A stretch of DNA of 64,000 nucleotides. Source: Candidatus Mcinerneyibacteriota bacterium. Lineage in GTDB: Bacteria; Macinerneyibacteriota; Macinerneyibacteria; Macinerneyibacteriales; DSCS01. A program made the translations under genes and the position numbers. Each line of letters starts with the position of its first letter. The stretch's first letter is position 1. Under the pieces are notes generated by a model, which saw only the letters and a program-made list of their open reading frames with translations, had not been told where the DNA came from and searched no databases. Location: positions 166,845 to 230,844 of the forward strand of contig JAFGWL010000056.1 in assembly GCA_016937175.1 (NCBI GenBank). The letters run 5' to 3'. Shown here one piece after another: positions 5,125 to 63,868 of this stretch.

Positions 5125-6798
5125 CTATTCTTCGCTGCCGGCAGAGTCTCCCATGAACAGATACCTTTTGATCTTCCGGGTGGAAGTCTTAGGAAACTCT
5201 TCATGGCGAAGAGTGATCTTTCTCACCCGTTTATACTGAGCCAGGTGATTGTTCAATTTTTCAATCTCATGTTTCAAAAGTTCTTTCATCTTTTCGTCAT
5301 CAAGCTCCTTGATATTGTGCTCACCGGCCCACTCCTCCATCTTTTCGTAGTTGGGGAAGATAATAGCTTCAGGATGGTCCTGACCCACCACGAGGACCTC
5401 TTCAATATAGGGGCACTGGATCAGGATCTCCTCTATCTCTTCGGGGTAGATGTTTTTACCCCCGCTGGAGACGATGACGTTTTTCAGGCGCCCTTTGATA
5501 TTGATCCGTCCCTTCTTATCGATAAAACCATAATCCCCGGTATAAAACCATCCCTGTTTGAGGACTTCAGCTGTCTTACCGGGTTCTTTATAGTATCCTT
5601 TCATGATATTATCCCCCCGGACGACGATCTCTCCCACGCCGGTCTCATCGGGGTTGTAGATCCGCACTTTGACTCCTTCAAGAGGACGGCCCACCGAGTA
5701 GAAATCGATATCCCGGAAGTCTACGGCTGAAAGGACCGGAGAGGTCTCGGTCAGTCCATACCCCTGTATGATGGGGATCCCCAAAAGGAAGAAGAACTTA
5801 TTGATATGGGGCGGAAGAGCGGCTCCCCCGGCGACGAAAAAATCGATATTCTGAAACCCTGCCTTTTCAAGAAGGGGTTTGAAGATCCCCTTTGTCCCGT
5901 TAAGGCTCTTATCAAAGAGACGTCTGATCCTTGCTGCCAGGAAAAGGGTTTTCACAAGGGCCTTCCGTACCGGCGGGAGTTTGCTGATATTCGCCTGGAT
6001 GGAGTTATACATCTTCTCAAAGACCAGGGGGACTCCCACCATCTTGGTGACCTTCGTCTCCGCCATAGCCTTGACGATGTCACGGTTCGCCAGAGAAGGC
6101 GAGAAGGTAATAAGCGACCCGCTGAAGATAGGGGTCAGAAATCCCGCTGTTCCCTCATAAGCATGGTGGAGGGGCAGAATCGAAAGAAGATTGTCTTCGG
6201 GCTGGATCTGAAGCCGTTCCCGGATGGCCAGCAGGTTAGAGACAAGGTTTTTATGAGTGAGGATGACTCCTTTGGTCTTCCCGGTGGTTCCCGATGTATA
6301 GAGGAAGACAGCGGGATCTTCGGGGTCGATATCGGGGAGCGGAGGGATCTCCCGGGTCTTTTCAAAGAGTGAATAAAAACCGGTTTCCCCCATGGGGTTT
6401 AACTCGTAGAGATCTTTGAGGGCAGGCATCTCCTTTTTGGCCCCTGCGACATCTTCATAGAATTTCCCTTCGGCAAAAATACCCCTCATATCTGAATCGT
6501 TGATGATATGGACGATCTCACGGATTCCCAAAAGGCGGTCGATGGGGACGGCGATAAAACCCTGAAGCATACAGGCAGCATAGACCATGGCCCATTCGGG
6601 AGTATTGTTCCCAAGTATCCCGACTTTTTCCCCCTTCTCATACCCCAGCCCTCTTAAAAAAGAGCCCAGCTTCAGGGCATAATCTAGATATTGTCCGTAG
6701 GTATAGGATTGATAGGCTCCGTCCCGAAAGATCTGAAGAGCTTTCCTGTTTTCAAATGATTTCCCGTTTTGCAGAAAAAGATCCTGTAATGTCTTCAT
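5125..6798 (-). CDS. AMP-dependent synthetase / long-chain fatty-acid-CoA ligase
   Basis: 557 aa. AMP-binding signature YTSGTTGKTKGV and GYGLTET; ATGA overlap with the downstream STAS gene. Confidence 0.85.
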   Translation of the reverse strand: MKTLQDLFLQNGKSFENRKALQIFRDGAYQSYTYGQYLDYALKLGSFLRGLGYEKGEKVGILGNNTPEWAMVYAACMLQGFIAVPIDRLLGIREIVHIINDSDMRGIFAEGKFYEDVAGAKKEMPALKDLYELNPMGETGFYSLFEKTREIPPLPDIDPEDPAVFLYTSGTTGKTKGVILTHKNLVSNLLAIRERLQIQPEDNLLSILPLHHAYEGTAGFLTPIFSGSLITFSPSLANRDIVKAMAETKVTKMVGVPLVFEKMYNSIQANISKLPPVRKALVKTLFLAARIRRLFDKSLNGTKGIFKPLLEKAGFQNIDFFVAGGAALPPHINKFFFLLGIPIIQGYGLTETSPVLSAVDFRDIDFYSVGRPLEGVKVRIYNPDETGVGEIVVRGDNIMKGYYKEPGKTAEVLKQGWFYTGDYGFIDKKGRINIKGRLKNVIVSSGGKNIYPEEIEEILIQCPYIEEVLVVGQDHPEAIIFPNYEKMEEWAGEHNIKELDDEKMKELLKHEIEKLNNHLAQYKRVRKITLRHEEFPKTSTRKIKRYLFMGDSAGSEE

Positions 6799-7139
6799 AC
6801 GGCGACCTTTCTTTTGGCTTCCTCGACACTGCCAAAAATCTTGAATATCTTGTTGAACCCGGCAAGACTCAAAATCTTTTCGATCTTATGAGAGGGAGCG
6901 GCCAAAGCCAGCTCTCCGCTGCTCTTATTCAAGACAGACCGTGCTGCCAGAAACGATCCCATTCCGGCACTGTCCACATACTCTACTCCGTTCAGATCAA
7001 AAATGACAAAGATAAACCCCTTAGGTAAGAGAACATTCCTCACAAGCTCAATGACAGCGGGTTCATCATTGACGTTGATATTCCCTGAAAAGGAAACCAC
7101 CGCTGTTTTACCAAGCTCCTCTGTCACCCTCCATTCCAT
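6795..7139 (-). CDS. STAS-domain anti-sigma-factor antagonist (RsbV/SpoIIAA-like)
   Basis: 114 aa, matching the STAS pattern (VDSAGMGSF...GELALAAP...ILSLAGF); overlaps the upstream kinase gene. Confidence 0.8.
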   Translation of the reverse strand: MEWRVTEELGKTAVVSFSGNINVNDEPAVIELVRNVLLPKGFIFVIFDLNGVEYVDSAGMGSFLAARSVLNKSSGELALAAPSHKIEKILSLAGFNKIFKIFGSVEEAKRKVAV

Positions 7140-7557
7140 GACATCCTCCTCTGCATGCTATTTTCATCTCCAGGACAGTCTGCCCGGGAGAGAAATGGTA
7201 TTCGACGCTGTCCATCAGCCTTTTCATCAAAAAGATCCCTCGCCCTCCGGGAAGCGTGATGTTATCCGGATGAGTGGGATCAGCCAGGGTTTCCGGGCAA
7301 AACCCTTTCCCCAGGTCCTTTATGGTAATATGAAGAGCCTCTTCTGTCAAAAGAAGTTCAACATCGACATTTTTCTCAGGATCTTCACCGTTTCCGTGTT
7401 TTACCGCATTGACGACTCCTTCCACCACAGCCAGAAATATCTCATCGGGACATAGGCCGCTTTCTGCGGCGAAATCAGACATGAACTGCCTGTATAGAGC
7501 TTCGATACCCGGCAGAAATGAGGTCCGGCTGGGAAAACTGAAGTGGATGCGGACCAT
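7108..7557 (-). CDS. anti-sigma regulatory factor, HATPase_c Ser/Thr kinase (RsbW/SpoIIAB-like)
   Basis: 149 aa; GHKL N-box AVVEGVVNAVKHG and G-box DLGKGF...GGRGIFLMKRL. Confidence 0.8.
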   Translation of the reverse strand: MVRIHFSFPSRTSFLPGIEALYRQFMSDFAAESGLCPDEIFLAVVEGVVNAVKHGNGEDPEKNVDVELLLTEEALHITIKDLGKGFCPETLADPTHPDNITLPGGRGIFLMKRLMDSVEYHFSPGQTVLEMKIACRGGCHGMEGDRGAW

Positions 7558-7558
7558 A

Positions 7559-8803
7559 TCACTCTCTCCGGAAAAGCAGAAGAGTCATGTCGTCTGTCTG
7601 TTTTCCCCGGGCAAAATCGAAGGCCCTGTCGAAAAGATTCTGGCTGAACGCCTCAAGGCTCTCCCTCGGGCCCTTCTCCAGATCCTTCACAAAGGCCTTC
7701 TCCCCATAGAGGTTCTCTTCGCTGTCCATGGATTCAGTGATCCCGTCGGTGTAAAGGATCAGGGTCTCTTTCCGGTCGAGGGGAAGTGTATGAAGGCTGA
7801 AGTCATACTCTTCCAGGATACCCAGTGGAATGTCATTACTCTCAAGAAAACGGACAGAACCCTCCTCGGAAAGAAGAGCCGGATAATTATGGCCGGCATT
7901 GACGTATTCGATGGCATGTCTCTTTTTGTCCAGTTTACCTAAAACAAGAGTCACAAAGCGCTGAGCTTCCGTATCCCGGAAGATGGAACTGTTCAGCTGA
8001 TTCACGATATCGGCGAGATTCATTTTAAATCGGACAGCCGAATGAAGATAGGCACGCAATGTGCTCATGACCAGGGCAGCAGGGGCCCCTTTCCCGGAGA
8101 CATCTGCGATGACGAACAACACCTGGTCTTCTCCATAGGGAAGAACATCATAATAATCGCCCCCGACACTCCGGCAGGCCCGGTACCGGGCCACATACTG
8201 ATATCCCTCGATGGAGATATCATCGCGGGGAAGAAGCCTCTCCTGGATCTCTCCTGCGATCCTCAGGTCAGCTTCCATCCGTTCCTTTTCCAGAGTATCT
8301 TTATGCCACATGGCGTTTTTCAGATTTAAGGCAGCCAGATCTGCAAATGTCTGGAGGAGTTTCAAGTCCCGGGAATTAAAGGCTCCGCCGTCTTCCTTGT
8401 TCAGGACTTCTATCAGACCGATGACCTTACCGTTGATCCATACGGGAACACCGATGATGGATTTAGTAACAAATTCGCTTTTTTTGTCCACCCCCTGAAA
8501 AAACCTCGGATCGGCCGAAACATCTTTGACCAGAAGCGGCTTTTCATTCTGAATGATCCATCCGGCGATACCCTTGTCGGCGGGGAAGCGGATCTCTTTG
8601 ATCTTCTCCCCTTTTTCTCCCGTGGCCACATCAAAATAGAGCTCATTTTTTTCTGTATCCAGGAAGATCAAAGAACTGGCTTCCGCTTTAAAGACCACTT
8701 TAGCCTGTTCCATGATGACAGCTTTTGTCTTGTCAAAATCCAAAGAAGCATTGAGCATTTTGACGACATCAAGGAGTTTTCTGTACCGGCTTTGTTCCGC
8801 CAT
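7559..8803 (-). CDS. GAF-domain PP2C-type serine phosphatase (RsbU/SpoIIE-like)
   Basis: 414 aa. N-terminal GAF, then a PP2C/SpoIIE domain (GGDYYDV...ADVSGKG...YTDGITE); 1-nt gap to the downstream kinase gene. Confidence 0.85.
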   Translation of the reverse strand: MAEQSRYRKLLDVVKMLNASLDFDKTKAVIMEQAKVVFKAEASSLIFLDTEKNELYFDVATGEKGEKIKEIRFPADKGIAGWIIQNEKPLLVKDVSADPRFFQGVDKKSEFVTKSIIGVPVWINGKVIGLIEVLNKEDGGAFNSRDLKLLQTFADLAALNLKNAMWHKDTLEKERMEADLRIAGEIQERLLPRDDISIEGYQYVARYRACRSVGGDYYDVLPYGEDQVLFVIADVSGKGAPAALVMSTLRAYLHSAVRFKMNLADIVNQLNSSIFRDTEAQRFVTLVLGKLDKKRHAIEYVNAGHNYPALLSEEGSVRFLESNDIPLGILEEYDFSLHTLPLDRKETLILYTDGITESMDSEENLYGEKAFVKDLEKGPRESLEAFSQNLFDRAFDFARGKQTDDMTLLLFRRE

Positions 8804-10982
8804 CGCGTCCCTCCCTTTCCAATTGAGCTAACAGTTTAATATACCCTTTCATCTTCTCTTTGGCAACCAGAAGGGCTCTCAGGTTCTCCTCTTCCGCTTC
8901 GATGACCTGGGGGGAGGCTTTATTCAAAAATTCAAAATCAAACAGGCGGCTCCTTTTTTCGAGGATGCGTCTGTTTATCTCTTCCTTCTGCTGCTGCAAC
9001 TCCTCCATCCGCAGACTCACTCTTGATTTATCATAGACCGGGATATAGAGGCTGATCTTATCCAGCTTCATTTTCAAGCTTTTTTTGGGCATCTCCTTGG
9101 GAGTGATGTATTTGAGCTCTGTAAGACTTAAAAAACGGGTTATATAAAACATATTCCGGTTGAGGGTATCCTCCAGCCCGCCGCCGGGATTGGTTATCCA
9201 TATCTCCAGGGGTTCATCGGGCCCGATATTCAATATTGACTTTCCGTCCATGACCGTATCGATAAGATCCAGGATAAAATGGTCCCGTTCGAGTTCTTCG
9301 CTGAAGTGATAGTCCTCCCTGTAGGCCGGGATCCTTCCGGATTCCGAGATATCAGGATAAAAGGGAGCCAGACAGGTCTTAACAGCCCGGAAAACATAAA
9401 GAGAATTCCTGAAGACAGCGGGGTCCTCTTCTGCCTGAATCTTTTTGACAAAGGGATAGACACGGTGATCCAGAAGGCCCATGAGAGCTTCCAGATGCCC
9501 CAGAAAACTAAACAGGTCGCCTACTTCAAGGGATCCGGTCGCTTTCAGGATAAAATCTTCCAAGGCCGTGAGAAGCAATTTGTCGATATAAAAATCAGTC
9601 CTTATGTCCACTTCGTCCATGGCCCCTTTGATCCGTCTGGAAAAGAGCCTTTCCCACCTGTTGAGAAATGAAAGAACCTTCCTGTCGCTGAGATGGATAT
9701 CCCTGTGAAGAGCTCCATCAAGATAGGCCAGGGGAGATACTTCGGGGAAAGATTCCGGCAGGACTCCTTCTCCGGATCCCTCTCTGTATTCCAGCCCGAT
9801 GACCTTCCGGTTGTCCCCCTTTTGCCGGGGGGCGAGGATCTTTTGAAAAAAGGACAACCGGTCGGAGACGAAATCTTTTTCCTCCTCATGCAGGAGCAAA
9901 AACCTGACCGGTTGACGCCAGAGAAAGGGAAGGAGAAGATTTCGCATCCGGTCATTAAAGAGCGCCTCCTCCTTATGCGTAACTTTTGAACATGCCGGGC
10001 AGGACTTTTCATCATAAAAAAGTGTTTTACATTGCGGGCATATGCGGTATTCGATCCTGACCGGCCCCGGATGAGAGTCCGGCCAGCCTTTATGCGAAGT
10101 AAGGATCAGCGGCCCGCTTCTGGGCCGTTCAGAGGTCACTTGTTCTACTCCTTCCTCGGAGATAAAGAGATGCTCCGCCAGAAGGTTATCAGCCACTTCA
10201 TTGCAATGACGGCAGCGGGGGACTTCTATCTCCTGATCCAGAGATTGGGACAAAGCCCCGTACATACTGAGGTCTCCCAAAAGCCTCTCGGGGTCATTCC
10301 TGTAAAGGGAAAGGAGACGTGTCCGGCTTTCAGATTCTTCATCCTCTTTGTCCTCTTTCTGAAGAGTAATAAATCTTGTATAGTACTCCGGGCGTGAGAC
10401 ATCCTCTACTTTCAGGATAGGGACATGATGCCCCAGGATAGGGACGATTCCTTTTTTGTCAGCATACTTTTCCATATTCCGGACGCCGATGGCTTTGACA
10501 TTCAAAAGAGCCAGGGGATCTGTGACTGAAAAGGTCAGAGGGTCGGCAAGGGCGGTGACATTCATCCTCAATGAATAGACATGATGTCTTTCCCGGGTAA
10601 TGCGGACCTCATACCCTTCCAGGACCCTTCCGCATCCGGGGCAGAAATACCCTTTGATCAGGCCTTTACGGGGAAGCCGCCTCTTGAAGAGCTCTTTCAT
10701 GAGGCGGTTTACGAAATCATGCCGGGTCTCTTTGTCAAGGGGAAGATGAAGCTCTTCGAAGCGGATGCCGAGAAGAGTATAAAGTTTTTTTTTCAATATT
10801 TCTTTCTGATTGTTTTTGCAGAGGATAAGATCATAATAGGCCGGCTTTTCCTCCCCGAGAGAAGCAAACGCCTTGTGGAGAAAATTTCCATAGACCAGGG
10901 GATAAAGGTCACGGGCCGTGAGCCGCCTGTGGGTGACAGGCGTGTAATAGATCATGCCTTCTTTTTTGCTCTTATCAGCCAT
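8769..10982 (-). CDS. large cytoplasmic Zn-knuckle protein of unknown function; possible class I aaRS (MetRS)-like pseudo-enzyme
   Basis: 737 aa, no TM or signal peptide. Cys pairs CPGC (aa 114-117), CRHC (257-260) and CPQCKTLFYDEKSCPACS (315-331), the last resembling the MetRS Zn knuckle CPKCKSPDQYGDNCEVCG. No HIGH or KMSKS motif; C-terminal coiled-coil. Overlaps the PP2C gene by 35 nt and AMMECR1 by 8 nt. Confidence 0.55.
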   Translation of the reverse strand: MADKSKKEGMIYYTPVTHRRLTARDLYPLVYGNFLHKAFASLGEEKPAYYDLILCKNNQKEILKKKLYTLLGIRFEELHLPLDKETRHDFVNRLMKELFKRRLPRKGLIKGYFCPGCGRVLEGYEVRITRERHHVYSLRMNVTALADPLTFSVTDPLALLNVKAIGVRNMEKYADKKGIVPILGHHVPILKVEDVSRPEYYTRFITLQKEDKEDEESESRTRLLSLYRNDPERLLGDLSMYGALSQSLDQEIEVPRCRHCNEVADNLLAEHLFISEEGVEQVTSERPRSGPLILTSHKGWPDSHPGPVRIEYRICPQCKTLFYDEKSCPACSKVTHKEEALFNDRMRNLLLPFLWRQPVRFLLLHEEEKDFVSDRLSFFQKILAPRQKGDNRKVIGLEYREGSGEGVLPESFPEVSPLAYLDGALHRDIHLSDRKVLSFLNRWERLFSRRIKGAMDEVDIRTDFYIDKLLLTALEDFILKATGSLEVGDLFSFLGHLEALMGLLDHRVYPFVKKIQAEEDPAVFRNSLYVFRAVKTCLAPFYPDISESGRIPAYREDYHFSEELERDHFILDLIDTVMDGKSILNIGPDEPLEIWITNPGGGLEDTLNRNMFYITRFLSLTELKYITPKEMPKKSLKMKLDKISLYIPVYDKSRVSLRMEELQQQKEEINRRILEKRSRLFDFEFLNKASPQVIEAEEENLRALLVAKEKMKGYIKLLAQLEREGRDGGTKPVQKTP

Positions 10983-11532
10983 CCCGATCCTTTTCAGAAA
11001 AGATCTCGGCTGTAAAGGAGTAGATCTCAGTCTCGGGCCAGGAAGCAGCCTCGGGGGGGAGCCCCGCCTTCCGGCAGGTATGTCCGATAAACTCCTCCCG
11101 CCCCCAATGATACTCGACGGCTACCTGGGGCAGAAGGAGCCCTGATCTTGACCCGTTTCTGACAACGAGCCCGTCCCGTCCGGTACGTATCCCGCTCAGG
11201 TCCGTGATACGCTTCAGTGGCGACAGAAGAGAGATTTCAATGGCAACATCGTCAAGTTCCTCACGCCTGAGAGGTTCAAAACGGGGGTCGTGAAAAGCGG
11301 CTTCACGGGCTAAATGGATAACGGCGTCTTTCAACGGCTCCACTCCGGTTATAAAGCCGATGCATCCCTTTAGCTCACCGCTGAGAGTCAGAGTGACGAA
11401 AAGGCCTCTCTTTTGACTAAAAAGAGGATCTTCCAGAGGTTCGATAAAGATTCCGGGATCGAAGACAGATGCAATGCTCTGCCTTGCTCGTCTAAGAAGG
11501 GCTTGTCTCTGACCGTCCTTCAGTGTCAGCAT
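10975..11532 (-). CDS. AMMECR1-domain protein (AmmeMemoRadiSam system protein A-like)
   Basis: 185 aa with the AMMECR1 core LKGCIGF and LSPLKRI...LLLPQVA. Confidence 0.8.
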   Translation of the reverse strand: MLTLKDGQRQALLRRARQSIASVFDPGIFIEPLEDPLFSQKRGLFVTLTLSGELKGCIGFITGVEPLKDAVIHLAREAAFHDPRFEPLRREELDDVAIEISLLSPLKRITDLSGIRTGRDGLVVRNGSRSGLLLPQVAVEYHWGREEFIGHTCRKAGLPPEAASWPETEIYSFTAEIFSEKDRDG

Positions 11533-12493
11533 GCCCGGCCCCCCTCTTTGATTTCCGATGTATGAAAAAAACCACCAGGGCCCACAGGAAAAGAGCGATG
11601 ATGACGAAATTCATGATAACGCCCAGGTAGAGGTATTTCTTTTTATAGTCAAACTGCCGCTCATGTTCTTTCTTGAAGGCTTCGTCGCCGAAGCGGCACA
11701 TATATTTATGATCGGGAGCAAAGACATCAACGATGCCCTTGGCATTGTCACTCACGAAAAAATAACCGTTGTACGACGCAAGAGAGGCAGGAATATAATA
11801 TTTAGACTGAGCAGTCAAAAGAACTTCCTCAACCGGGTCATAGACATAATACCTGGCCGAGAAAAAATCCTTATCCGCGTAGAGAAAATGAAGGGCTCCC
11901 CCGTCATCTACTCCCCGGATGACGGTCCCCTCTTCAGGCAAACGGTCGAAAACTCTCTCCTCCGCCCCGCCAAGCTGACGGATGATATTACGGCCTCTCT
12001 CCGAGTAATAGATACCGCCTCTCCACTGAAAGAGGGCATAGGGCCTGACAGGTGTCTTTTGAGTCTCCAGGAGAGCCCCTTCAGAATCCAATATCTCAAT
12101 ATACTTCTCTTTAGCGGATACGCCGTAGATCTTTTTGCCGATGGCCGTGACTGTCGTGTAACGTCCGGCGGAAAAACTCTTCTGCGGGTTGAACCAGGAG
12201 TCATAGACGATAAACCGGCCATTCTCTCTGCGATAGGTCACCGGCACTCCTTCCAGAAAGAAGAAGGCATCGGGCTTGCTGCGGAATTGAAATCCCATGG
12301 ATTTCTCTCCGTTCAGTGTATACGCCTCGATGACACTTCCCTCAAGAAGATAGAGTTTATCTCCGTTGAACGCCAGGGCATCGATGCCGGGAGCTTTCAG
12401 GAAACGGTCTTTGGCGATAAAGTTGACGATAACGGCGAGGATGATAAGAGCGATGATGAGTATAGCCTGGGTGTTAAGCCTCTTCTCATTCAT
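11492..12493 (-). CDS. membrane protein, N- and C-terminal TM helices with ~270-aa Tyr/Gly-rich extracytoplasmic region
   Basis: ORF 11492-12526; likely start MNEKRL at 12493, whose ATG overlaps the TGA of the upstream small ORF (ATGA). Hydrophobic segments ILIIALIILAVIV and VIMNFVIIALFLWALVVFF. Confidence 0.55.
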   Translation of the reverse strand: MNEKRLNTQAILIIALIILAVIVNFIAKDRFLKAPGIDALAFNGDKLYLLEGSVIEAYTLNGEKSMGFQFRSKPDAFFFLEGVPVTYRRENGRFIVYDSWFNPQKSFSAGRYTTVTAIGKKIYGVSAKEKYIEILDSEGALLETQKTPVRPYALFQWRGGIYYSERGRNIIRQLGGAEERVFDRLPEEGTVIRGVDDGGALHFLYADKDFFSARYYVYDPVEEVLLTAQSKYYIPASLASYNGYFFVSDNAKGIVDVFAPDHKYMCRFGDEAFKKEHERQFDYKKKYLYLGVIMNFVIIALFLWALVVFFIHRKSKRGAGHADTEGRSETSPS

Positions 12494-12821
12494 CCCCGAC
12501 ACCGAATACTTCTTTAAGAAAATCATTCATAAGGTCTTCACTGTTATCCGAAGGAACGACCTGAGCCAATTCATCTTTTTCAGCATTTTTAATCGTGGAC
12601 ATCACCTCTTTGTGCTGTTCCACAAGCTTCTCCTCTATCTTCTTCTCGATCTTGTCCGGGTCTCCGTTAATGATCAACTTTTTTTTCTTGCTGCCGATGA
12701 TGGCCCCGTTATCGAAGATCAGGGTGACGATGGTGCTGTTGGACGGCATAAATTCCGTCTGAACATGGACCTTTCGGTTTTTAAATTCGACATCGCTGTT
12801 TCTCCCCTGAATCATGCTCAT
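12486..12821 (-). CDS. small hypothetical protein (111 aa), Lys/Glu-rich
   Basis: Complete ORF with ATGA-type coupling to rimI upstream and to the membrane protein downstream; no recognisable motif. Confidence 0.45.
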   Translation of the reverse strand: MSMIQGRNSDVEFKNRKVHVQTEFMPSNSTIVTLIFDNGAIIGSKKKKLIINGDPDKIEKKIEEKLVEQHKEVMSTIKNAEKDELAQVVPSDNSEDLMNDFLKEVFGVGDE

Positions 12822-13982: not shown

Positions 13983-14405
13983 TCACCTTTCAATCGTGAT
14001 CTCACGAGTCGTTTCATCGACCAGTTTAATAATGACCATGGCTTTATCTGTCCCCGGAGGGATCTCCGCCTTTTCGGCCCACTCGATAATGGATACAACC
14101 CCCTCTTCGAGATGCTCATCGAAACCCAGTTGAAAGAGCTCCTCAGAATCTTCGATCCGGTAGAGGTCGAAGTGGTTCACCGCTCCCCGGGAAGAGGGAT
14201 AGATGTTGAGAAGCGTAAAAGTGGGAGACCGGACTTCTTTTTCCGGGATTCCGTAAAAACGTGCCATTCCCCTGGCAAAGACGCTCTTCCCAGCTCCCAA
14301 ATCCCCATACAGGAGGACAACGGCACCCCGGGCCAGTTCACCTGCAAGCTTTTCCCCCAGGGACAGGGTATCTTCAGGAGAGCCGGATAAGAAGACTTCT
14401 TTCAT
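13983..14405 (-). CDS. tsaE: tRNA t6A ATPase TsaE (YjeE)
   Basis: 140 aa, Walker A GDLGAGKS and the YjeE signature; conserved tsaE-tsaB-rimI order. Confidence 0.85.
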   Translation of the reverse strand: MKEVFLSGSPEDTLSLGEKLAGELARGAVVLLYGDLGAGKSVFARGMARFYGIPEKEVRSPTFTLLNIYPSSRGAVNHFDLYRIEDSEELFQLGFDEHLEEGVVSIIEWAEKAEIPPGTDKAMVIIKLVDETTREITIER

Positions 14406-15841
14406 GGGATAAGATTCATTCCTTTTGATGTGACAGCCAGGACATAACCGTTATAGGCAAACAGCTTCTCTGTTCGGGAAGAGCACAGCCCGTCTTCTAC
14501 TGTCAGGACTTTAAACCGTTCAGTTTCCAGGTCGATAATATAGAGGCCTGTCTCTGTGGCGGCATAAAGCTTGCCTTCCCTTACGAGCATGTCAGAGACC
14601 CCTTCCCGCAGGGATTTGACGACCCCCGATTCGTGAGTATCGATGTCGTACCACATGATCCCCATATTCCCGCCCACATAGAGCCGGGTGCCGGCCCGGG
14701 CCATGGTATTGAGGAAATCACTGTGTAAAGAAGAGGCTGTCAGCCTTTGAAGGACCGTTCCGTCTTTTGCGGCCAGGATCAGGCGGTCTCTGTGCAGAAG
14801 GATCAGAGTCCCTTCCGTCACATCGAATTGGTCGACATTGAAAAAATCTATTCCTCGGATCTCTCTGACCTTACGGGGTTGACGGACATTGAAGGAATTG
14901 ATCCCGTATTTTGTCAGGAGATAAAGCTCTTCTCCCTCTGCCCGAAGGGAGATAATATTGTTATCCAGAAGGCCGGCATCCATCTTTACGGCTGAGCGGA
15001 AGGAAGTGCCGGCATAGACCCCGACTCCGTTGCTTCTTGTGGCCAACCAGAGACGCCCGGCAGCCCGGACAGCATCATTCAGGTTATCGTCCAGTTCAGG
15101 GACTCGGTCAAAAGAGAAAGCTCCATTTTTCAAATGGTTGATAAAAGTCCCCACAAACCAGTAACCGCCCTCTTCATCAGGCAGCACTGCTTTCAGGCCG
15201 GAGCCAAAGAGAGCTCCGTTCTCTTTTTTGACTACGGGAGAGGAGGATGAGAAGGCTGCAAGATAACCTTCTCGGGTGATGAGGACACCGTCCCCCCCCG
15301 GAAGTCCGGCATAGTCGATGACTTCCAGAGGATTTCCCGTATCGGGGTCAAGAGGCGGGAAGTCGGGTGCTTTACGATGTATGGGATGAACAGGTACCTG
15401 CAGTCCCCGGACCAGTTCGAACCGGGTCAAAAGCCATGTATAGTCACCGCCCTTCGCCCTCACAGAGATCCGCCGGTTGTCATATCCCCACTCCAGGACA
15501 GGGCCTACGGACTTCCCGATCTTCTCCCAGGAGTCATCAGCCAGGCGCCTGTAGATACCCCGGTCGGTGAAGGCCAGGACCTCACCCAGCTCTTCTGCAG
15601 CCGCTATCATATAGATATGGTGTCTTTCCAAAAGGTCTCCCGGATTCCCCGAATACTGAAAAGAACCTTCAGCTCCCCGATAGATAATAAGGCCTTTGTC
15701 GGTCCCGCAATAGACGTTAAAACTGTCAGAGGCCACATCGGTAGCCTTCTCATAAGAGATGAAAGAGAGGGCTTCCCGGGCTGCTGATGTCAGAGAAGCC
15801 GACAAGAACAGAAGGAGGAAAACCAACCATCTTCGTATCAT
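14402..15841 (-). CDS. secreted beta-propeller protein (two-component-regulator-propeller-like repeats)
   Basis: 479 aa with signal peptide MIRRWLVFLLLFLSASLTSAA; repeated blades WFVGT / LWLAT / LYAAT / LYVGG. Confidence 0.55.
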   Translation of the reverse strand: MIRRWLVFLLLFLSASLTSAAREALSFISYEKATDVASDSFNVYCGTDKGLIIYRGAEGSFQYSGNPGDLLERHHIYMIAAAEELGEVLAFTDRGIYRRLADDSWEKIGKSVGPVLEWGYDNRRISVRAKGGDYTWLLTRFELVRGLQVPVHPIHRKAPDFPPLDPDTGNPLEVIDYAGLPGGDGVLITREGYLAAFSSSSPVVKKENGALFGSGLKAVLPDEEGGYWFVGTFINHLKNGAFSFDRVPELDDNLNDAVRAAGRLWLATRSNGVGVYAGTSFRSAVKMDAGLLDNNIISLRAEGEELYLLTKYGINSFNVRQPRKVREIRGIDFFNVDQFDVTEGTLILLHRDRLILAAKDGTVLQRLTASSLHSDFLNTMARAGTRLYVGGNMGIMWYDIDTHESGVVKSLREGVSDMLVREGKLYAATETGLYIIDLETERFKVLTVEDGLCSSRTEKLFAYNGYVLAVTSKGMNLIP

Positions 15842-18327: not shown

Positions 18328-19068
18328 ATGAGTATACACAAGAGAGCGCCCATGATTGAAAAAGAAGCCTTGATCGTCTCGTCACAAAGACACCTGGCCT
18401 CACGCCTTCAGACAGAGCTGGCCCGTATCCCCGGAATATCTGTCCGCCCCCGGATCTATGAAGAGGGGCGGCTCTCCTTCAACCTCCGCCGGCGCAGCCC
18501 CGACCTTATCTTCATGTCCCTTAAAAACGAGCCTTCTCTCTGGGTCGACCTCTTCCTCCATAGGCCCCCATTTTCGCAGGTCATCGCAATCACGCCCGAC
18601 CCTGCCCTGGCTCCCCGGGCTTTCCTTTATAACTGTGCCGATGTCCTGACATCCCCCTTCCGCGTTCAGGACCTGCGCAGGGCTGTCGCCAGGGCCCTGA
18701 CACGGCGTTTTCTTTGGCTCCGAAGACAGGAGAGGCACTTCTCCCCCCTGGCAGCCCGTAAAAAAGATGTGATCCGCTTTTTCAACCCTGAAGAAATCCT
18801 CTTTTTTAAAGCAGAAGATAAAGTCGTCTTTCTGTATACAGACAAAGAGCGCTATTTCTCACGTTTCAGCCTGAGCCAGCTGGAAGCTCGCCTAAACCCC
18901 CTCCAATTCTGTCGTGTCCGGCGTAATGTGATCGTAGCGCTTCATGCGATCCGCGAAGTGGAAATCAAAGGCTCACGCGGGCTTTTCCTCTCTCTCAGAG
19001 GAAGCGGGATGAAGATCCGCGCCGGACGGAGATATATCCCTTATCTTAAAGAAAAGCTACTCCTTTAA
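18328..19068 (+). CDS. LytTR-family DNA-binding regulator with degenerate (pseudo-)receiver domain
   Basis: C-terminal LytTR domain (IRFFNPEEILFFKAEDKVVFLYTDKERYFSRFSLSQLEARL...FCRVRRNVIV). N-terminal receiver-like fold has Ser at the phospho-Asp position (PDLIFMSL) and IVSSQ in place of the acidic pair. Possible true start MIEKE at 18352. 12-nt convergent overlap with the MEMO gene. Confidence 0.7.
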   Translation: MSIHKRAPMIEKEALIVSSQRHLASRLQTELARIPGISVRPRIYEEGRLSFNLRRRSPDLIFMSLKNEPSLWVDLFLHRPPFSQVIAITPDPALAPRAFLYNCADVLTSPFRVQDLRRAVARALTRRFLWLRRQERHFSPLAARKKDVIRFFNPEEILFFKAEDKVVFLYTDKERYFSRFSLSQLEARLNPLQFCRVRRNVIVALHAIREVEIKGSRGLFLSLRGSGMKIRAGRRYIPYLKEKLLL

Positions 19069-19896
19069 TCCCCAGGATCCGTATGTCACAAAAGAGTGAA
19101 GCCCCCCTGCGGGCATTTTGTCGTAGCTGGTCGTATATTCGAGAAGCTGGATGACACCTTGCCGGAAAAGCCCGCAGATCAGGGCCACACCTCCAGGGCC
19201 GCAGGCGGACTGATGCTCCAGGGCATATGGAATGATCTCCTTCCATTCTCCCTTGCTCACCTTTTTAATGAACTCAGGGTCTTTTTGCCGGGTCACATAT
19301 TCATATCCCGCAGCTCCTGTCCCCAGGGAAGAGTCTCCGTAACGGAACCCGTAGTGAGTCAAATCGGTACTGGCCACAAAGATCACTTCCGGATGATCCT
19401 CTTTTAGTTTTTCAAGGATATTGACATAATCCGTAAGGCTTTTCTGGATCCCCGGAGGAACTGAGACGGGAATGATCCGGCTCCGGGGATAGAGGTACTT
19501 TAAAAAAGGAAGCTGGACCTCGATGGAATGTTCCCCTTCATGGGCCCGGGCTGAATGGAGAAAGAGCGATTCATCGAAATAGTCTCTGATAAGCCCATGG
19601 GCAACGGGCATATCTCCCAAAGGAGTCTCCCAGGCACCTTCCGGAAAGACAGCAGGACGCTCCACTCCGTAGGTATGGACGGCCCCCAGGAGGAGGAAGA
19701 CGGCATCGGGGCAGGCATTCAAAGCTGCCAAGGCTCTGAGAGCGATTCCTCCTGAGAAGGCCCAGCCTGCATGGGGAACGATGCCCCCCCGGTATTCCCT
19801 CAGCCCTGTCTCTGACAGCTCGCATTTGATAAAAGCTTCGATCTCAGCGGCCCGGGCAGGATAAAACTGTCCGGACACGACAGCATTTCGTCTCAT
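19057..19896 (-). CDS. MEMO1-family protein (AmmeMemoRadiSam system protein B-like)
   Basis: 279 aa with the N-terminal VSGQFYPA and metal-site PHAGWAFSG motifs of the Memo fold. Confidence 0.8.
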   Translation of the reverse strand: MRRNAVVSGQFYPARAAEIEAFIKCELSETGLREYRGGIVPHAGWAFSGGIALRALAALNACPDAVFLLLGAVHTYGVERPAVFPEGAWETPLGDMPVAHGLIRDYFDESLFLHSARAHEGEHSIEVQLPFLKYLYPRSRIIPVSVPPGIQKSLTDYVNILEKLKEDHPEVIFVASTDLTHYGFRYGDSSLGTGAAGYEYVTRQKDPEFIKKVSKGEWKEIIPYALEHQSACGPGGVALICGLFRQGVIQLLEYTTSYDKMPAGGLHSFVTYGSWGLKE

Positions 19897-59611: not shown

Positions 59612-62600
59612 TCAGGAATCAAGAGCCTCTTTGAGGGCCCGTCCCAGCTCCTGCCTTCGGTAGGGTTTCTGGATAAACCCCCTGGCTCCTTTTTCCATGA
59701 GCTCGTGAAATCCCCGGTCATGGCTAAACCCTGATGAAAAGACGACTTTGATATGAGGGTCCAGTTTCAGAAGTTCCTCAAAGACTTCACGGCCGTTCAT
59801 TTTTGGCATCACCATATCCAGAAGGATCACATCGATCTCTTCACGTTTCTCACGGTAAGCCTGAAGCCCTTCATCCCCGTCTGAAGCCTCAAAGACACGG
59901 TATCCCAGGCCGGACAGGACCTCTGAAGCGATCGCCCGTACCACATGGTCATCTTCGATGATGAGGACAGTCTTGTCTTGAACAGTGAGATCCCCATGTT
60001 CGCGAGAGGATTTTCTGATCGGCGTACTTTCTGCCGGCAGATAAATCCTGAATAAACTTCCAGCGCCGGGGGTGCTTTCGCACATCACCATGCCGTTGTG
60101 ATCTTTGACAGACCCGTAGACGGCAGCCAGCCCCAATCCTGTCCCCTTCCCCACACCCTTCGTCGTAAAGAAGGGTTCAAAGATATGCTCCTGGATCTCC
60201 GGGGCCATTCCCTCTCCGTTGTCCCTGACTTCCACACAGACAAAGGGCCCGGGTTTGAGGTCAAAGGAACTCTCACGGCAAAAAGATTCATCCAGATAAC
60301 AATCCTTTGTCGTGAATGAGACGATCCCCCCTTCCGGCAGGGCATCCCGTGCATTGATTCCGAGGTTTAAAAATGCGTTCTGAAGCTGGGCAGGATCTCC
60401 GATCACTGTGGAAAGGTTCGCTTTGAAATCCATTTTAATCTCAATGCGCCTGTCCAGGCTTCGCTCCAGGATCTGGATCGCGTCTTTAAGGATCAGGTGA
60501 ATATTCACAGGAGTCGATTCGACCTTCCCTTTTCGTGAAAAATCAAGAAGTTTTTGTGTCAGGGCTGAGGCTCGACGGGCTGTATCGACGATCATATTGA
60601 GATTTCTTTTGAGATCCCGGTCCTTTCCCACTTTCATAACCAGAAGATCGGCCGATCCCATGATACCGGCCAACATATTGTTGAAATCGTGGGCGATCCC
60701 GCCGGCCAGCAGGCCTATGGAATCAAGCTTCTGAGACTGACGGAGCTGCTGTTCCAATACATATTGCTCTGTCATGTCGCGGAAGACGACGACTGTCCCG
60801 GTGACCACCCCTTTTTCGTCCCGGATGGGAGCGATACTGAGGGAGACCCTTCTTTCCTTCCCGTCAGGAGTCCTCAGAAGAGAGGCGGAGGGCAGCCTTA
60901 TTTTCTGCCTGCGGTCAGCCTCATCCGGAGCCAAAAGTGAGCCGTCTAACTCCTCATTCATAAATCGCAACACTGCCCGGGCCGGCTTCCCTCTCGCTTC
61001 ATCCGCGGAAAGGCCCAGAATCTTCTCCCCCACAGGGTTCATCTCCTGGATATTGCCCTGTGTGTCCAGGGCTATGACCGCATCCCCGATGGAGTTGAGG
61101 ATAGTCCTGAGATCGGCTTCTCTCCGGCGTAAGGCTTCCTCGGTGGCCTTACGTCGTGTGATATCCCGTGCAATGGAGAGAATGGCCTGCTCCCCCCGAA
61201 AGTTGATAAGCCGGGCGTTGACCTCTGTGGGGACCGGCCGCCCCTCTTTAGTGATATGCTCGGTCTCAAAGATCAGATGCCCTTCCTTTATCAGGTCCTC
61301 GATCCGTTCAGAGACTCGTTCCGCATAGGCGGGCGCGTCAAACTGGGCGGGGCCCATAGCAAGCATCTCTTCACGGCTGTAGCCCATGCGCTCACAGAAG
61401 GCGTCGTTGACCTGCAGTGTCTTTCCGGCGGGAGTATGAATCAGCATGCCATCGGCAGCTGAATGGAAAAAGAGACGGAATTGCTCTTCACTCTCCCGGA
61501 GCGTCTCTTCCATCTTTTGCTTTTCGGTGATGTCCGTTCCCGAACTGAGAATCCCTTTCTTCTCTCCTTTCTCATCATACAAGGGCGCATTCCGCCAGGC
61601 TATATAACGTAGTTTCCCCGTCCCTGTGAGAATAAAGTTTTCATGATACCGTACATCTTTGTTCTTATCAGCCATTAAATCATGGAAAAGGGACCTGGTC
61701 TCTCCCTTGTAGGCCCCAGGAACAAACTCATCTATCCACACTTTACCCAGGATCTCCTCTTCGCTTCTCTCAAGGACCCGGCATCCCTTGGGGTTGACCA
61801 TGACGACCCGGCCCTCCCGGTCCAGGGCCAGCATCATCACATCGGCCACATCGAGATAGGCCTGTGCCTTATCCCTCTCCTCATTTATCTTCTCTTCGGC
61901 CAGTTTGAAATCGGTCACATCGATGACAGAGATCAACCCCGCCTTTTTCCCTTTATAGACACAGGTCGTCCCGGCCAGGCGGACCCATCGCTCGGTCCCG
62001 TCTTTTCGGATGATCTTGAATTCATACCCTGTAGGCGCATCCTCCCCCTGCTGACGTTTCCGTCCCCGTCCCTGGACCAATTCCTTAAAATCGGGGTGGA
62101 CTATACTCCAGAAATTCATCCGTTGTAGTTCGTCCCTTGAATAACCGGTGATCTTTTCCGAGACCGGATTCACATAGACCCATTTATCTTCCTGGTAGAG
62201 CATCACGGCTACCGGTGTGGAGACAGCCAGAGTCCTGAAGAGCTCCTCGCTCTCTTCAAGGGCTTCCCGTACGGCATACTCTTCTGTCACATCCCGAAAC
62301 ACCAACACCACGCCGATGACTTCGCCTTTCTGGTCCTTGACCGGCGCGGCACTGTCAGCGATCTGGTAGCGGGAGCCGTCTTTGGCGATGAGAATCGTGT
62401 GATTCGCCAGCCCCACGATTATCCCGTTTCTCAGAACATCCTCGACCGGATTATTTGCTCTTTCCCCTGTCCGTGCGTTGATGATCTGGAAGACTTCTTC
62501 AAGGGGTTTCCCAGCAGCCTCATCAGCTGCCCAGCCGGTGAGCTTTTCAGCTACCCGGTTCATCTCGATGACCCGCCCCTCGATATCGGTTCCGATCACA

Positions 62601-63868
62601 GCATCACCGATGGACTGCAGGATGGCCAGGCGCGTCTTTTCAGATTTGTATTGTCTGTTTTCTTCCCGAAGCCGGATAAACCGTAAAAAAAGAAGAAGAA
62701 GGCCCGTTACAAGAAGGCCGCTTGCAAAAACAAGCCAAGGTATATACAGAGGGCTTTCTTTAAAAAACATCCGGTCAGCAGCCAGACGGACATTCCATTC
62801 GTTTTCACCCGCCCTGATGGAATCTTCCCTGACAAAGGGCTCCCTAGCCTTTGCCGGACAGCGGGAAAAGACTGTTTTGGAACCGGTGAGCCCGTAAGGG
62901 TCACGGACTTCGATTCCTATATAAAACTGTTCCTTTGGGCTTATAATCTCCGTAATCACCTGATCCATAAGGATGACTCCCTCAAGAAAGCCCTGAAGCT
63001 CTTTTGTATTTACCGCCTTATAGACAGGGAGAATAAAAGAGACAACGGCGTGTTCTTTCAGCTCTCCGGGGTGGAACGTGGAATCCACCAGCGTTATGCT
63101 GCCCCGGGCCAGGGCCCGCTCATAGACCATCCTTCGATATGGGAACTCCTCGGTTTTCAGTCCAGTAACCCCTTCGTGTCCTTGTTTGGGTTCAATAAAG
63201 AAAACCGGGTAATAGACCGACTCCTTTTGAATAACCTTGGCCGGGGTCAAGTCTTTTTCTTTCAAAACAAAGTCAAACCCCTCCTGCAGGGCTTTTTGTC
63301 TCAGAGAAGGAAGCTCTTGTCCTCGCACCGCTGCGATCCAGACGATCGAATGAATGTCCGGGTTCTTACTCAGAAGATGGGAGGAAAAGTTTGTAAACTC
63401 CCGATAAGAGATTTGTTCACTGTTTTCAAAAAAATTCTTCACCCCGGCCAGGCCGTTCCACAACTCGCTGACCTTGGCCTGAAGGGAGACTTCGAGGAGG
63501 TCGGCTCTCCTGTCAAAGATTTTTTTCAACCCTTTCAACTCACTCTGATAGGTCATCCAGAAGAGGACGATAAAAAAGACATAGCCGGTGAGGGCGATAC
63601 TGATAAGATGGTTTCTGCCGTCGGAGCCCTGGAGTCCTGCTTCTTCCTCTGTGCGTCTTCTCCCCTTAATCCACTTGATCAGGATAAAAGTATTTGCAGA
63701 AATGATAATTAAGATAAAAAGAATGAAGATGAGATCAGCTCTCCACAAACAGGTCAGAGGCCCCAAGCCATTCAGCCGTAAAACGATGTACAGAGTGCTG
63801 AGCAGCGTAAGAGCCAGGCTCAGCCCTAATACAGGGTGCTGACTTTTTCCACGCAAATGGTTGGACAA
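59612..63868 (-). CDS. multi-PAS hybrid sensor histidine kinase with extracytoplasmic sensor domain
   Basis: 1418 aa. Two TM helices flank a ~330-aa periplasmic domain. At least four PAS/PAC modules, HisKA H-box [10 protein letters not shown], HATPase N/G boxes ([16 protein letters not shown]) and a C-terminal receiver (VLIIEDD...VILLDMVMP). Confidence 0.85.

Follow-up and report, generated by a model that had tools for sequence, protein, structure and literature searches.

HisZ and the histidyl-tRNA synthetase (HisRS)-like domain of GCN2 are the classic cases of enzymes that were turned into sensors or regulators, and inactive partner subunits are also found among tRNA-modifying enzymes (ADAT3/Tad3 with ADAT2/Tad2, and Trm6 with Trm61). 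HisZ is a paralogue of HisRS (PMC7373986), and the sensing of tRNA by GCN2 has been discussed (PMC13580269, PMC4052509). Here we describe a gene of this general kind in a 64,000-nucleotide stretch of a Candidatus Mcinerneyibacteriota genome (contig JAFGWL010000056.1; hereafter the window). The 737-residue open reading frame (ORF) at 8769-10982, which the ORF listing confirms with an ATG start on the minus strand, had been read in an earlier note on this DNA as a catalytically dead class I aminoacyl-tRNA synthetase (aaRS) scaffold resembling methionyl-tRNA synthetase (MetRS). The assignment to class I (subclass Ia) and the loss of the catalytic motifs stand, whereas the parent enzyme is not MetRS but valyl-tRNA synthetase (ValRS). 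The product, referred to below as pseudo-ValRS, is 100% identical to the NCBI hypothetical protein JXR74_07945 of Candidatus Mcinerneyibacteriota bacterium. It is almost certainly a ValRS-derived, non-catalytic and functional protein. The gene is probably an ancient duplicate of the ValRS gene from which a folded, presumably zinc-stabilised, multi-domain protein has been kept.

Pseudo-ValRS derives from ValRS and not from MetRS. In NCBIfam the protein matches only three models, all of them valS, the best being NF004349 (E = 6e-14), and the equivalog cutoffs are not reached (51.1 bits against 704 for NF004349; 37.8 bits against 612 for TIGR00422). Pfam yields no significant domain, and its sole aaRS-related match, to PF10458 (Val_tRNA-synt_C; E = 0.039, 14.7 bits), lies below the cutoff of 25.9. 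When the family alignment is compared with canonical ValRS by hhalign, residues 86-719 are collinear with ValRS 146-872 in local mode (Prob 99.8, E = 8e-30), and global mode gives Prob 100 and E = 1e-43. Conversely, tblastn with canonical ValRS as the query matches the pseudo-ValRS gene at E values of 1e-7 to 1e-9. No synthetase was matched when PDB sequences were searched with phmmer and a four-sequence profile; the homology lies beyond the reach of single-profile HMMER against solved chains.

Structure prediction leads to the same parent. An AlphaFold2 (AF2) model computed from seven family sequences has a predicted local distance difference test score (pLDDT) of 79.4 and a predicted template modelling score (pTM) of 0.72, compared with a pLDDT of 39 for a four-sequence input. 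The top Foldseek match of this model is the Thermus thermophilus ValRS-tRNAVal complex (1GAX, E = 1.2e-24), followed by IleRS and then LeuRS; the structural and profile comparison with class I synthetases proposed in the earlier note thus bears out the class and singles out ValRS. MetRS is not among the top 50 matches. The model superimposes on tRNA-bound ValRS over 547 residues with the domain arrangement preserved, whereas MetRS, ArgRS and CysRS superimpose only on the shared class Ia core of approximately 300-370 residues. Pseudo-ValRS and ValRS share the same domain order, namely a Rossmann core, a connective peptide 1 (CP1) with a zinc clasp, a zinc knuckle in CP2/3, an anticodon-binding bundle, a junction domain and, as predicted for pseudo-ValRS, a coiled-coil arm, and the zinc-ligand cysteines occupy homologous positions. 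They differ in that pseudo-ValRS is approximately 140 residues shorter, carries new family-specific motifs and evolves much faster than housekeeping genes.

The cysteine motifs merit particular attention, since the MetRS attribution had been built on one of them. The CPGC motif reported at residues 114-117 is present in the translation, and so is the tandem knuckle (C315-P-Q-C318 followed by C328-P-A-C331), although the 18-residue string quoted for residues 315-331 in fact spans 315-332. A third pair, C257-R-H-C260, had been overlooked and is invariant across the family together with C114/C117. In the alignment with ValRS, C114/C117 and C257/C260 (zinc site 1) fall on C174/C177 and C341/C344 (P0027 numbering), and they form a predicted ValRS-type zinc clasp at the base of CP1. 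The close mimicry of the MetRS knuckle that had been claimed for the tandem motif does not hold, as only the generic CxxC-x9-CxxC pattern is shared and the positional homologue is the second zinc site of ValRS. A collinear profile alignment puts the cysteine pairs exactly on the zinc-ligand CxxC pairs of the canonical enzyme, so that they are not a product of chance. A generic double zinc-ribbon protein was also considered and rejected, the Pfam DZR match being only E = 0.15 and below the cutoff.

The proposal that pseudo-ValRS is a dead zinc-knuckle protein of MetRS origin draws on the resemblance of the knuckle in the connective-peptide region to that of E. coli MetRS. Against it, NCBIfam and Pfam return no MetRS match, their synthetase matches being limited to valS and the arm of ValRS; the knuckle aligns with the second ValRS site; MetRS is missing from the leading Foldseek matches; and the protein carries a CP1 domain with an editing fold and a ValRS-type coiled-coil arm, both of which MetRS lacks. 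We regard a MetRS origin as next to impossible. The long C-terminal coiled coil described in the earlier note corresponds to this putative arm, a predicted helical hairpin that retains the tip motif F-x-F-L-x-K-A and in which L680, A689 and L718 are identical to ValRS invariants in a column-by-column alignment.

Canonical ValRS depends on HIGH and KMSKS for aminoacylation, on WCISRQ in the catalytic core and connective region, on DTWF in the catalytic core, and on TRPET and TPAHD for editing. These motifs were counted in 11 family members and five canonical ValRS sequences, HIGH and KMSKS also with relaxed patterns. The absence of HIGH and KMSKS reported earlier was upheld: each occurs in 0/11 family members and 5/5 canonical enzymes, and the same counts were obtained for WCISRQ, DTWF, TRPET and TPAHD. 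The losses can be traced in the alignment. The KMSKS position of ValRS is occupied by a non-conserved FPEVS (residues 412-416), and DTWFSS has disappeared. Of the N-terminal Rossmann half, which is approximately 60 residues shorter than its ValRS counterpart, only a strand-helix-strand skeleton is preserved. In CP1, VTDPLA stands in place of TTRPET, and a deletion has removed the GTG..K.TPAHD loop; the WCISRQ..WGH segment is deleted from the CP2/CP3 remnant. As judged from its sequence, pseudo-ValRS is no longer able to activate valine, charge tRNA or edit.

It might nevertheless be supposed that pseudo-ValRS is the real, extremely divergent and still catalytic ValRS of the organism, as the canonical valS of the phylum was not found, the inspected part of each genome being limited to about 64 kb and its flanks. 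This is very improbable. The signatures of adenylate formation and of the tRNA 3' end (HIGH, KMSKS, the DHAG loop, WCISRQ and DTWF) are gone, there is no invariant residue between positions 261 and 442 in the Rossmann halves, and the score of 51 bits compares with a valS equivalog cutoff of 704. Moreover, phylum-wide identity is 25-31% for pseudo-ValRS, as opposed to 65-72% for RF2 and 53-60% for Mfd, which is far too fast an evolution for an essential synthetase. A canonical valS should coexist with pseudo-ValRS, since ValRS activity is universally needed, the catalytic motifs are fully lost and the gene evolves fast. The ValRS of the phylum was not found via the cluster names of the best canonical matches, and the relatives of P0013 named by an indexed search belong to Oligoflexia and other phyla, none to Mcinerneyibacteriota.

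The gene is under purifying selection. The ratio of nonsynonymous to synonymous substitution rates (dN/dS) is 0.123 in comparison with the 79%-identical L006 orthologue, against 0.006-0.18 for 14 neighbouring genes. The full-length ORF (695-737 residues) is intact in every lineage, across seven species-level genomes with GC contents of 28-53%. Between clades that share only 23-30% identity, 42 residues are invariant, including all four cysteines of zinc site 1; 12 of the 42 are identical to ValRS invariants, among them these four cysteines and L680, A689 and L718 of the arm. A pseudogene in decay, or a relic without function left over from a duplication of valS, would fit the disappearance of the catalytic motifs and the position of the gene among the three fastest-evolving of its gene string, in which PP2C, for comparison, is 51-60% identical phylum-wide. 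However, the low dN/dS, the frame maintained over such a range of base compositions, the invariant residues and the confident AF2 model all oppose it, and we consider this explanation highly implausible.

Constraint is distributed unevenly along the protein. Inter-clade identity is 0.16 in the N-terminal Rossmann half, 0.10 in CP2/3, the least conserved region, and 0.13 in the C-terminal Rossmann half with the former KMSKS loop, which contains no invariant residue. In contrast, it amounts to 0.30-0.36 in the zinc site 1 hairpins, 0.28 in CP1, 0.27 in the anticodon-binding bundle, 0.32 in the junction domain (with 10 invariant residues) and 0.33 in the coiled-coil arm, the best-conserved large domain. 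The zinc clasp, CP1 fold, anticodon-binding bundle, junction and arm are thus conserved to approximately twice the degree seen in the former catalytic core. The retained modules also hold invariant motifs with no counterpart in canonical ValRS, namely RxDF[YF][IF][DE]K, VYP[YF] and [YF]R[EA]DY. The domains and the neighbouring genes are listed in Table 1.

Table 1. Domains of pseudo-ValRS and genes around it, in window coordinates.
Feature	Position	Strand	Basis or remark
Pseudo-ValRS ORF, complete	8769..10982	-	ORF listing: ATG start, 737 aa
Residues 1-103, shrunken N-terminal Rossmann half, without HIGH and PGTDHAG loop	10674..10982	-	AF2 E10-13/H23-41/E48-50
Residues 104-123, first half of zinc site 1 (C114, C117), hairpin into CP1	10614..10673	-	aligns with ValRS FCPRCGT
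Residues 124-253, CP1 with editing-domain fold	10224..10613	-	editing residues lost
Residues 254-275, second half of zinc site 1 (C257, C260), hairpin out of CP1	10158..10223	-	aligns with ValRS CYRCQT
Residues 276-342, CP2/CP3 remnant and zinc site 2 (C315, C318, C328, C331)	9957..10157	-	aligns with ValRS C414/C417/C431/C434
Residues 343-430, decayed C-terminal Rossmann half and former KMSKS loop	9693..9956	-	low pLDDT 401-428
Residues 431-545, anticodon-binding helix bundle; RTDFYIDK (461-468), VYPF (508-511)	9348..9692	-	
Residues 546-650, C-terminal alpha/beta junction domain (IleRS/ValRS type); YREDY (554-558)	9033..9347	-	valS models match 552/557-701/712
Residues 651-726, coiled-coil hairpin, putative homologue of ValRS tRNA-binding arm	8805..9032	-	AF2 helices 652-680, 691-726
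AMMECR1 (AmmeMemoRadiSam system protein A), upstream gene	10975..11532	-	Pfam PF01871, E 1e-52; TIGR04335, 172 bits vs cutoff 99
GAF-PP2C (SpoIIE/RsbU-type) phosphatase, downstream gene	7559..8803	-	Pfam GAF + SpoIIE
RsbW-type anti-sigma factor / serine kinase	7108..7557	-	Pfam HATPase_c_2, E 3e-25; NCBIfam RsbW-like matches
STAS anti-sigma-factor antagonist	6795..7139	-	Pfam STAS, E 1e-17; TIGR00377, 68.5 bits vs cutoff 53

The family is small and is tied to a single locus. When 1.84 billion representative proteins were searched exhaustively with a profile, eight family clusters were recovered (P0001, P0005-P0011), followed by a large score gap, below which lie canonical ValRS proteins of 860-910 residues and ValRS fragments at E values of 2e-7 or weaker. 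An indexed homologue search with an 11-sequence alignment gave only four close homologues, although distant members are present in the same collection. Among 185,579 species-representative genomes, scanned with a query alignment from which two fragment sequences had been removed, seven contain the family, including Candidatus Mcinerneyibacterium aminivorans. It is apparently confined to Mcinerneyibacteriota and to one fixed genomic position. One member locus, L007 (DSCS01000057.1), carries the NCBI label 'Bacillota bacterium SpSt-1200' and has the same 15-gene string as the window with 51-91% protein identity; it clearly belongs with the Mcinerneyibacteriota genomes, and its organism label is probably wrong. 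A separate observation concerns P0045 (882 residues, on a 4.2-kb ENA contig), another ValRS-like protein without HIGH and KMSKS, in which WCISR persists and TPAHD survives as a remnant, PGHD; it may represent a dead ValRS of another lineage that arose independently and has decayed less.

All seven genomes and the metagenomic contigs share a co-directional string of 15 genes running from RF2 to Mfd. The first part comprises RF2, MntP, a beta-propeller protein, TsaE, TsaB, RimI, a RomY-N-domain protein and a membrane protein, and the rest comprises AMMECR1, pseudo-ValRS, GAF-PP2C, an RsbW-like kinase, STAS, an acyl-CoA ligase and Mfd. Synteny with AMMECR1 and the PP2C/RsbW/STAS triad, which the earlier note had suggested checking, is therefore conserved in the loci of homologues and at the same time unspecific. 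Synteny as specific evidence of a functional link was rejected, given that conservation across the phylum extends to every gene from RF2 to Mfd.

Other members of the string were noted in passing. The 111-residue ORF at 12486-12821 (minus strand) matches NCBIfam NF053858, the family of RomY N-terminal domains, with 57.7 bits (cutoff 50) and is by far the most conserved gene of the string, being 99% identical to its L006 counterpart (neighbours 70-95%) with a dN/dS of 0.006 and still 54% identical in the M. aminivorans genome, whose GC content is 29%. Two further proteins, both on the minus strand, are fast-evolving and have no family assignment: one of 344 residues (11492-12526) with hydrophobic N- and C-terminal segments, and one of 479 residues (14402-15841) with only a weak PorZ-like beta-propeller similarity. 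Like pseudo-ValRS, these two drop to 23-32% identity phylum-wide.

Within the string, pseudo-ValRS is closely joined to the genes on either side. The translational overlaps given in the earlier note proved accurate: the end of AMMECR1 runs 8 nt into the start of pseudo-ValRS (10975-10982), and the 3' end of pseudo-ValRS shares 35 nt with the start of GAF-PP2C (8769-8803). Upstream of the PP2C start, and still within the 3' end of the pseudo-ValRS gene, lies a GGGAGGG run resembling a Shine-Dalgarno sequence. Where the start can be placed in other lineages, the AMMECR1 junction ranges from -4 to +11 nt and the PP2C overlap from 8 to 41 nt, such that the start/stop junctions on both sides overlap or nearly do so in almost every lineage. 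The partner-switching trio (SpoIIE with GAF, HATPase_c_2 and STAS) forms the three genes directly downstream and is kept at all loci that reach that far. The C-terminal tail GGTKP.QKT of pseudo-ValRS, invariant in the window clade, is encoded in the 35-nt PP2C overlap (8769-8803; the equivalent region in L001-L007), and its conservation may partly reflect a dual-coding constraint rather than protein function.

The pattern of retention suggests what the protein may do. In the 1GAX complex, ValRS touches its tRNA at three places: the anticodon through the anticodon-binding bundle, the elbow through the coiled-coil arm, and the 3' end through CP1. The name given by Pfam to PF10458 is likewise "tRNA binding arm". 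Because the surviving modules of pseudo-ValRS are those that hold tRNA in ValRS, binding of tRNA, and probably of tRNA-Val, may well have been retained; on homology, we give this an even chance. Pseudo-ValRS would accordingly bind tRNA without acting on it, and could be the subunit that provides RNA recognition or sensing to the product of a translationally coupled neighbour. A dead ValRS duplicate that acts as a probable tRNA-binding subunit or sensor for such a neighbour is, on balance, the explanation that we favour for the locus as a whole.

A different use of the same fold would be that of a protein-only scaffold or regulator, in which the body of ValRS provides a docking platform for GAF-PP2C, AMMECR1 or canonical ValRS after RNA binding has been lost. 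The family-specific invariant motifs in the anticodon-binding bundle and the junction (RTDFYIDK, VYPY and YREDY) suggest a new binding surface, CP1 is conserved despite the loss of the editing residues, the tRNA-facing domains are near neutral in net charge, and expression is tightly coupled with both neighbours. By contrast, the best-conserved parts of the protein are the three modules through which ValRS contacts tRNA, including an arm-tip motif common to canonical enzymes, and the domain arrangement still follows tRNA-bound ValRS over the 547 superimposed residues. A scaffold devoid of RNA binding is the main rival reading, though a rather unlikely one.

Several observations weigh against the tRNA-binding subunit that we favour. 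Zinc site 2 persists in just two clades, that of the window and that of P0007/P0008/L011, and has been lost from P0005, P0006, P0009 and P0010, which makes it dispensable in half of the family. The family-specific motifs might point to a new ligand that has nothing to do with tRNA. A scan of the whole window detected no tRNA genes or Rfam families, and tblastn with ValRS detected no canonical valS in the window or in the loci of relatives (about 64 kb plus flanks per genome). Since the whole RF2-Mfd string is syntenic throughout the phylum, adjacency to AMMECR1 and PP2C is weak functional evidence; to our knowledge, moreover, AMMECR1 and PP2C/RsbW/STAS modules are widespread in bacteria without any ValRS-like gene.

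If pseudo-ValRS does bind tRNA, its partner would be AMMECR1, PP2C or neither, and we assign roughly one third to each. The first candidate, AMMECR1, would be a predicted RNA base-modifying enzyme without a tRNA-recognition module of its own. This prediction, which includes a catalytic cysteine, was made computationally (PMC2034487, PMC4075521), and the KGCIG and DPRF motifs in the translation of the window AMMECR1 correspond to the published RGChG-like and DxRa motifs. A Memo-like AmmeMemoRadiSam protein B is encoded at 19057-19896 on the minus strand (192 bits against a cutoff of 26), 7.5 kb from AMMECR1 with nine unrelated genes in between, and a scan of 38 window ORFs yielded no radical SAM partner of AMMECR1 and Memo.

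The second candidate, the GAF-PP2C phosphatase, heads the RsbW/STAS partner-switching module. By analogy with GCN2, the dead ValRS might read the presence or charging of tRNA-Val through its anticodon-binding domain, coiled-coil arm and remodelled CP1 pocket and signal to GAF-PP2C, which would switch the RsbW/STAS cascade. Taken by itself, this specific scheme is a long shot, and a role as the tRNA-presenting subunit of AMMECR1 is about equally likely. Elsewhere in the window, a hybrid sensor kinase of 1418 residues (59612-63868, minus strand) with CHASE, at least five PAS, HisKA/HATPase and receiver domains is apparently unrelated.

The identity of pseudo-ValRS is solid and unusual, and its family is restricted to a single candidate phylum that has been poorly sampled. 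The family constitutes a natural experiment in which selection has discarded the chemistry of a synthetase and kept the zinc clasp, the CP1 fold and the modules that hold tRNA. Were tRNA binding on behalf of a neighbour-encoded partner to be true, the family would offer a testable handle on AMMECR1 function or a new tRNA-dependent input to partner switching. As a subunit of AMMECR1, it would point to a substrate for a protein that has long been uncharacterised from archaea to humans; under the GCN2-like scheme, it would provide a tRNA-sensing input to partner switching of a type not described before. There is also a practical consequence for annotation, in that a protein labelled "hypothetical" and lacking a Pfam domain can be mistaken for a broken valS when the completeness of metagenome-assembled genomes is assessed. 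The earlier note had anticipated that a protein of this kind would be new, and the literature searched agrees, describing no ValRS-like pseudoenzyme and, specifically, no full-length, editing-domain-containing class Ia pseudoenzyme derived from ValRS.

Among known systems, pseudo-ValRS belongs by concept with pseudoenzymes that derive from synthetases. With ADAT3/Tad3 and Trm6 the likeness is by concept only: in these, a dead paralogue gives tRNA binding to a catalytic partner, an arrangement that would fit a pair of pseudo-ValRS and AMMECR1. However, the inactive subunits of those enzymes are paralogous to their own partners, whereas pseudo-ValRS is derived from a synthetase and its putative partner AMMECR1 is only a predicted enzyme. 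HisZ, which resembles HisRS and is a regulatory subunit of ATP-phosphoribosyltransferase, and the GCN2 domain have in common with pseudo-ValRS that selection has maintained a synthetase fold after its aminoacylation chemistry was lost. They are class II derivatives of HisRS, whereas pseudo-ValRS belongs to class Ia, is full-length with an editing-fold domain and a tRNA arm, and is restricted to one candidate phylum. In all three, the synthetase fold has presumably been kept for the binding of its ancestral ligand.

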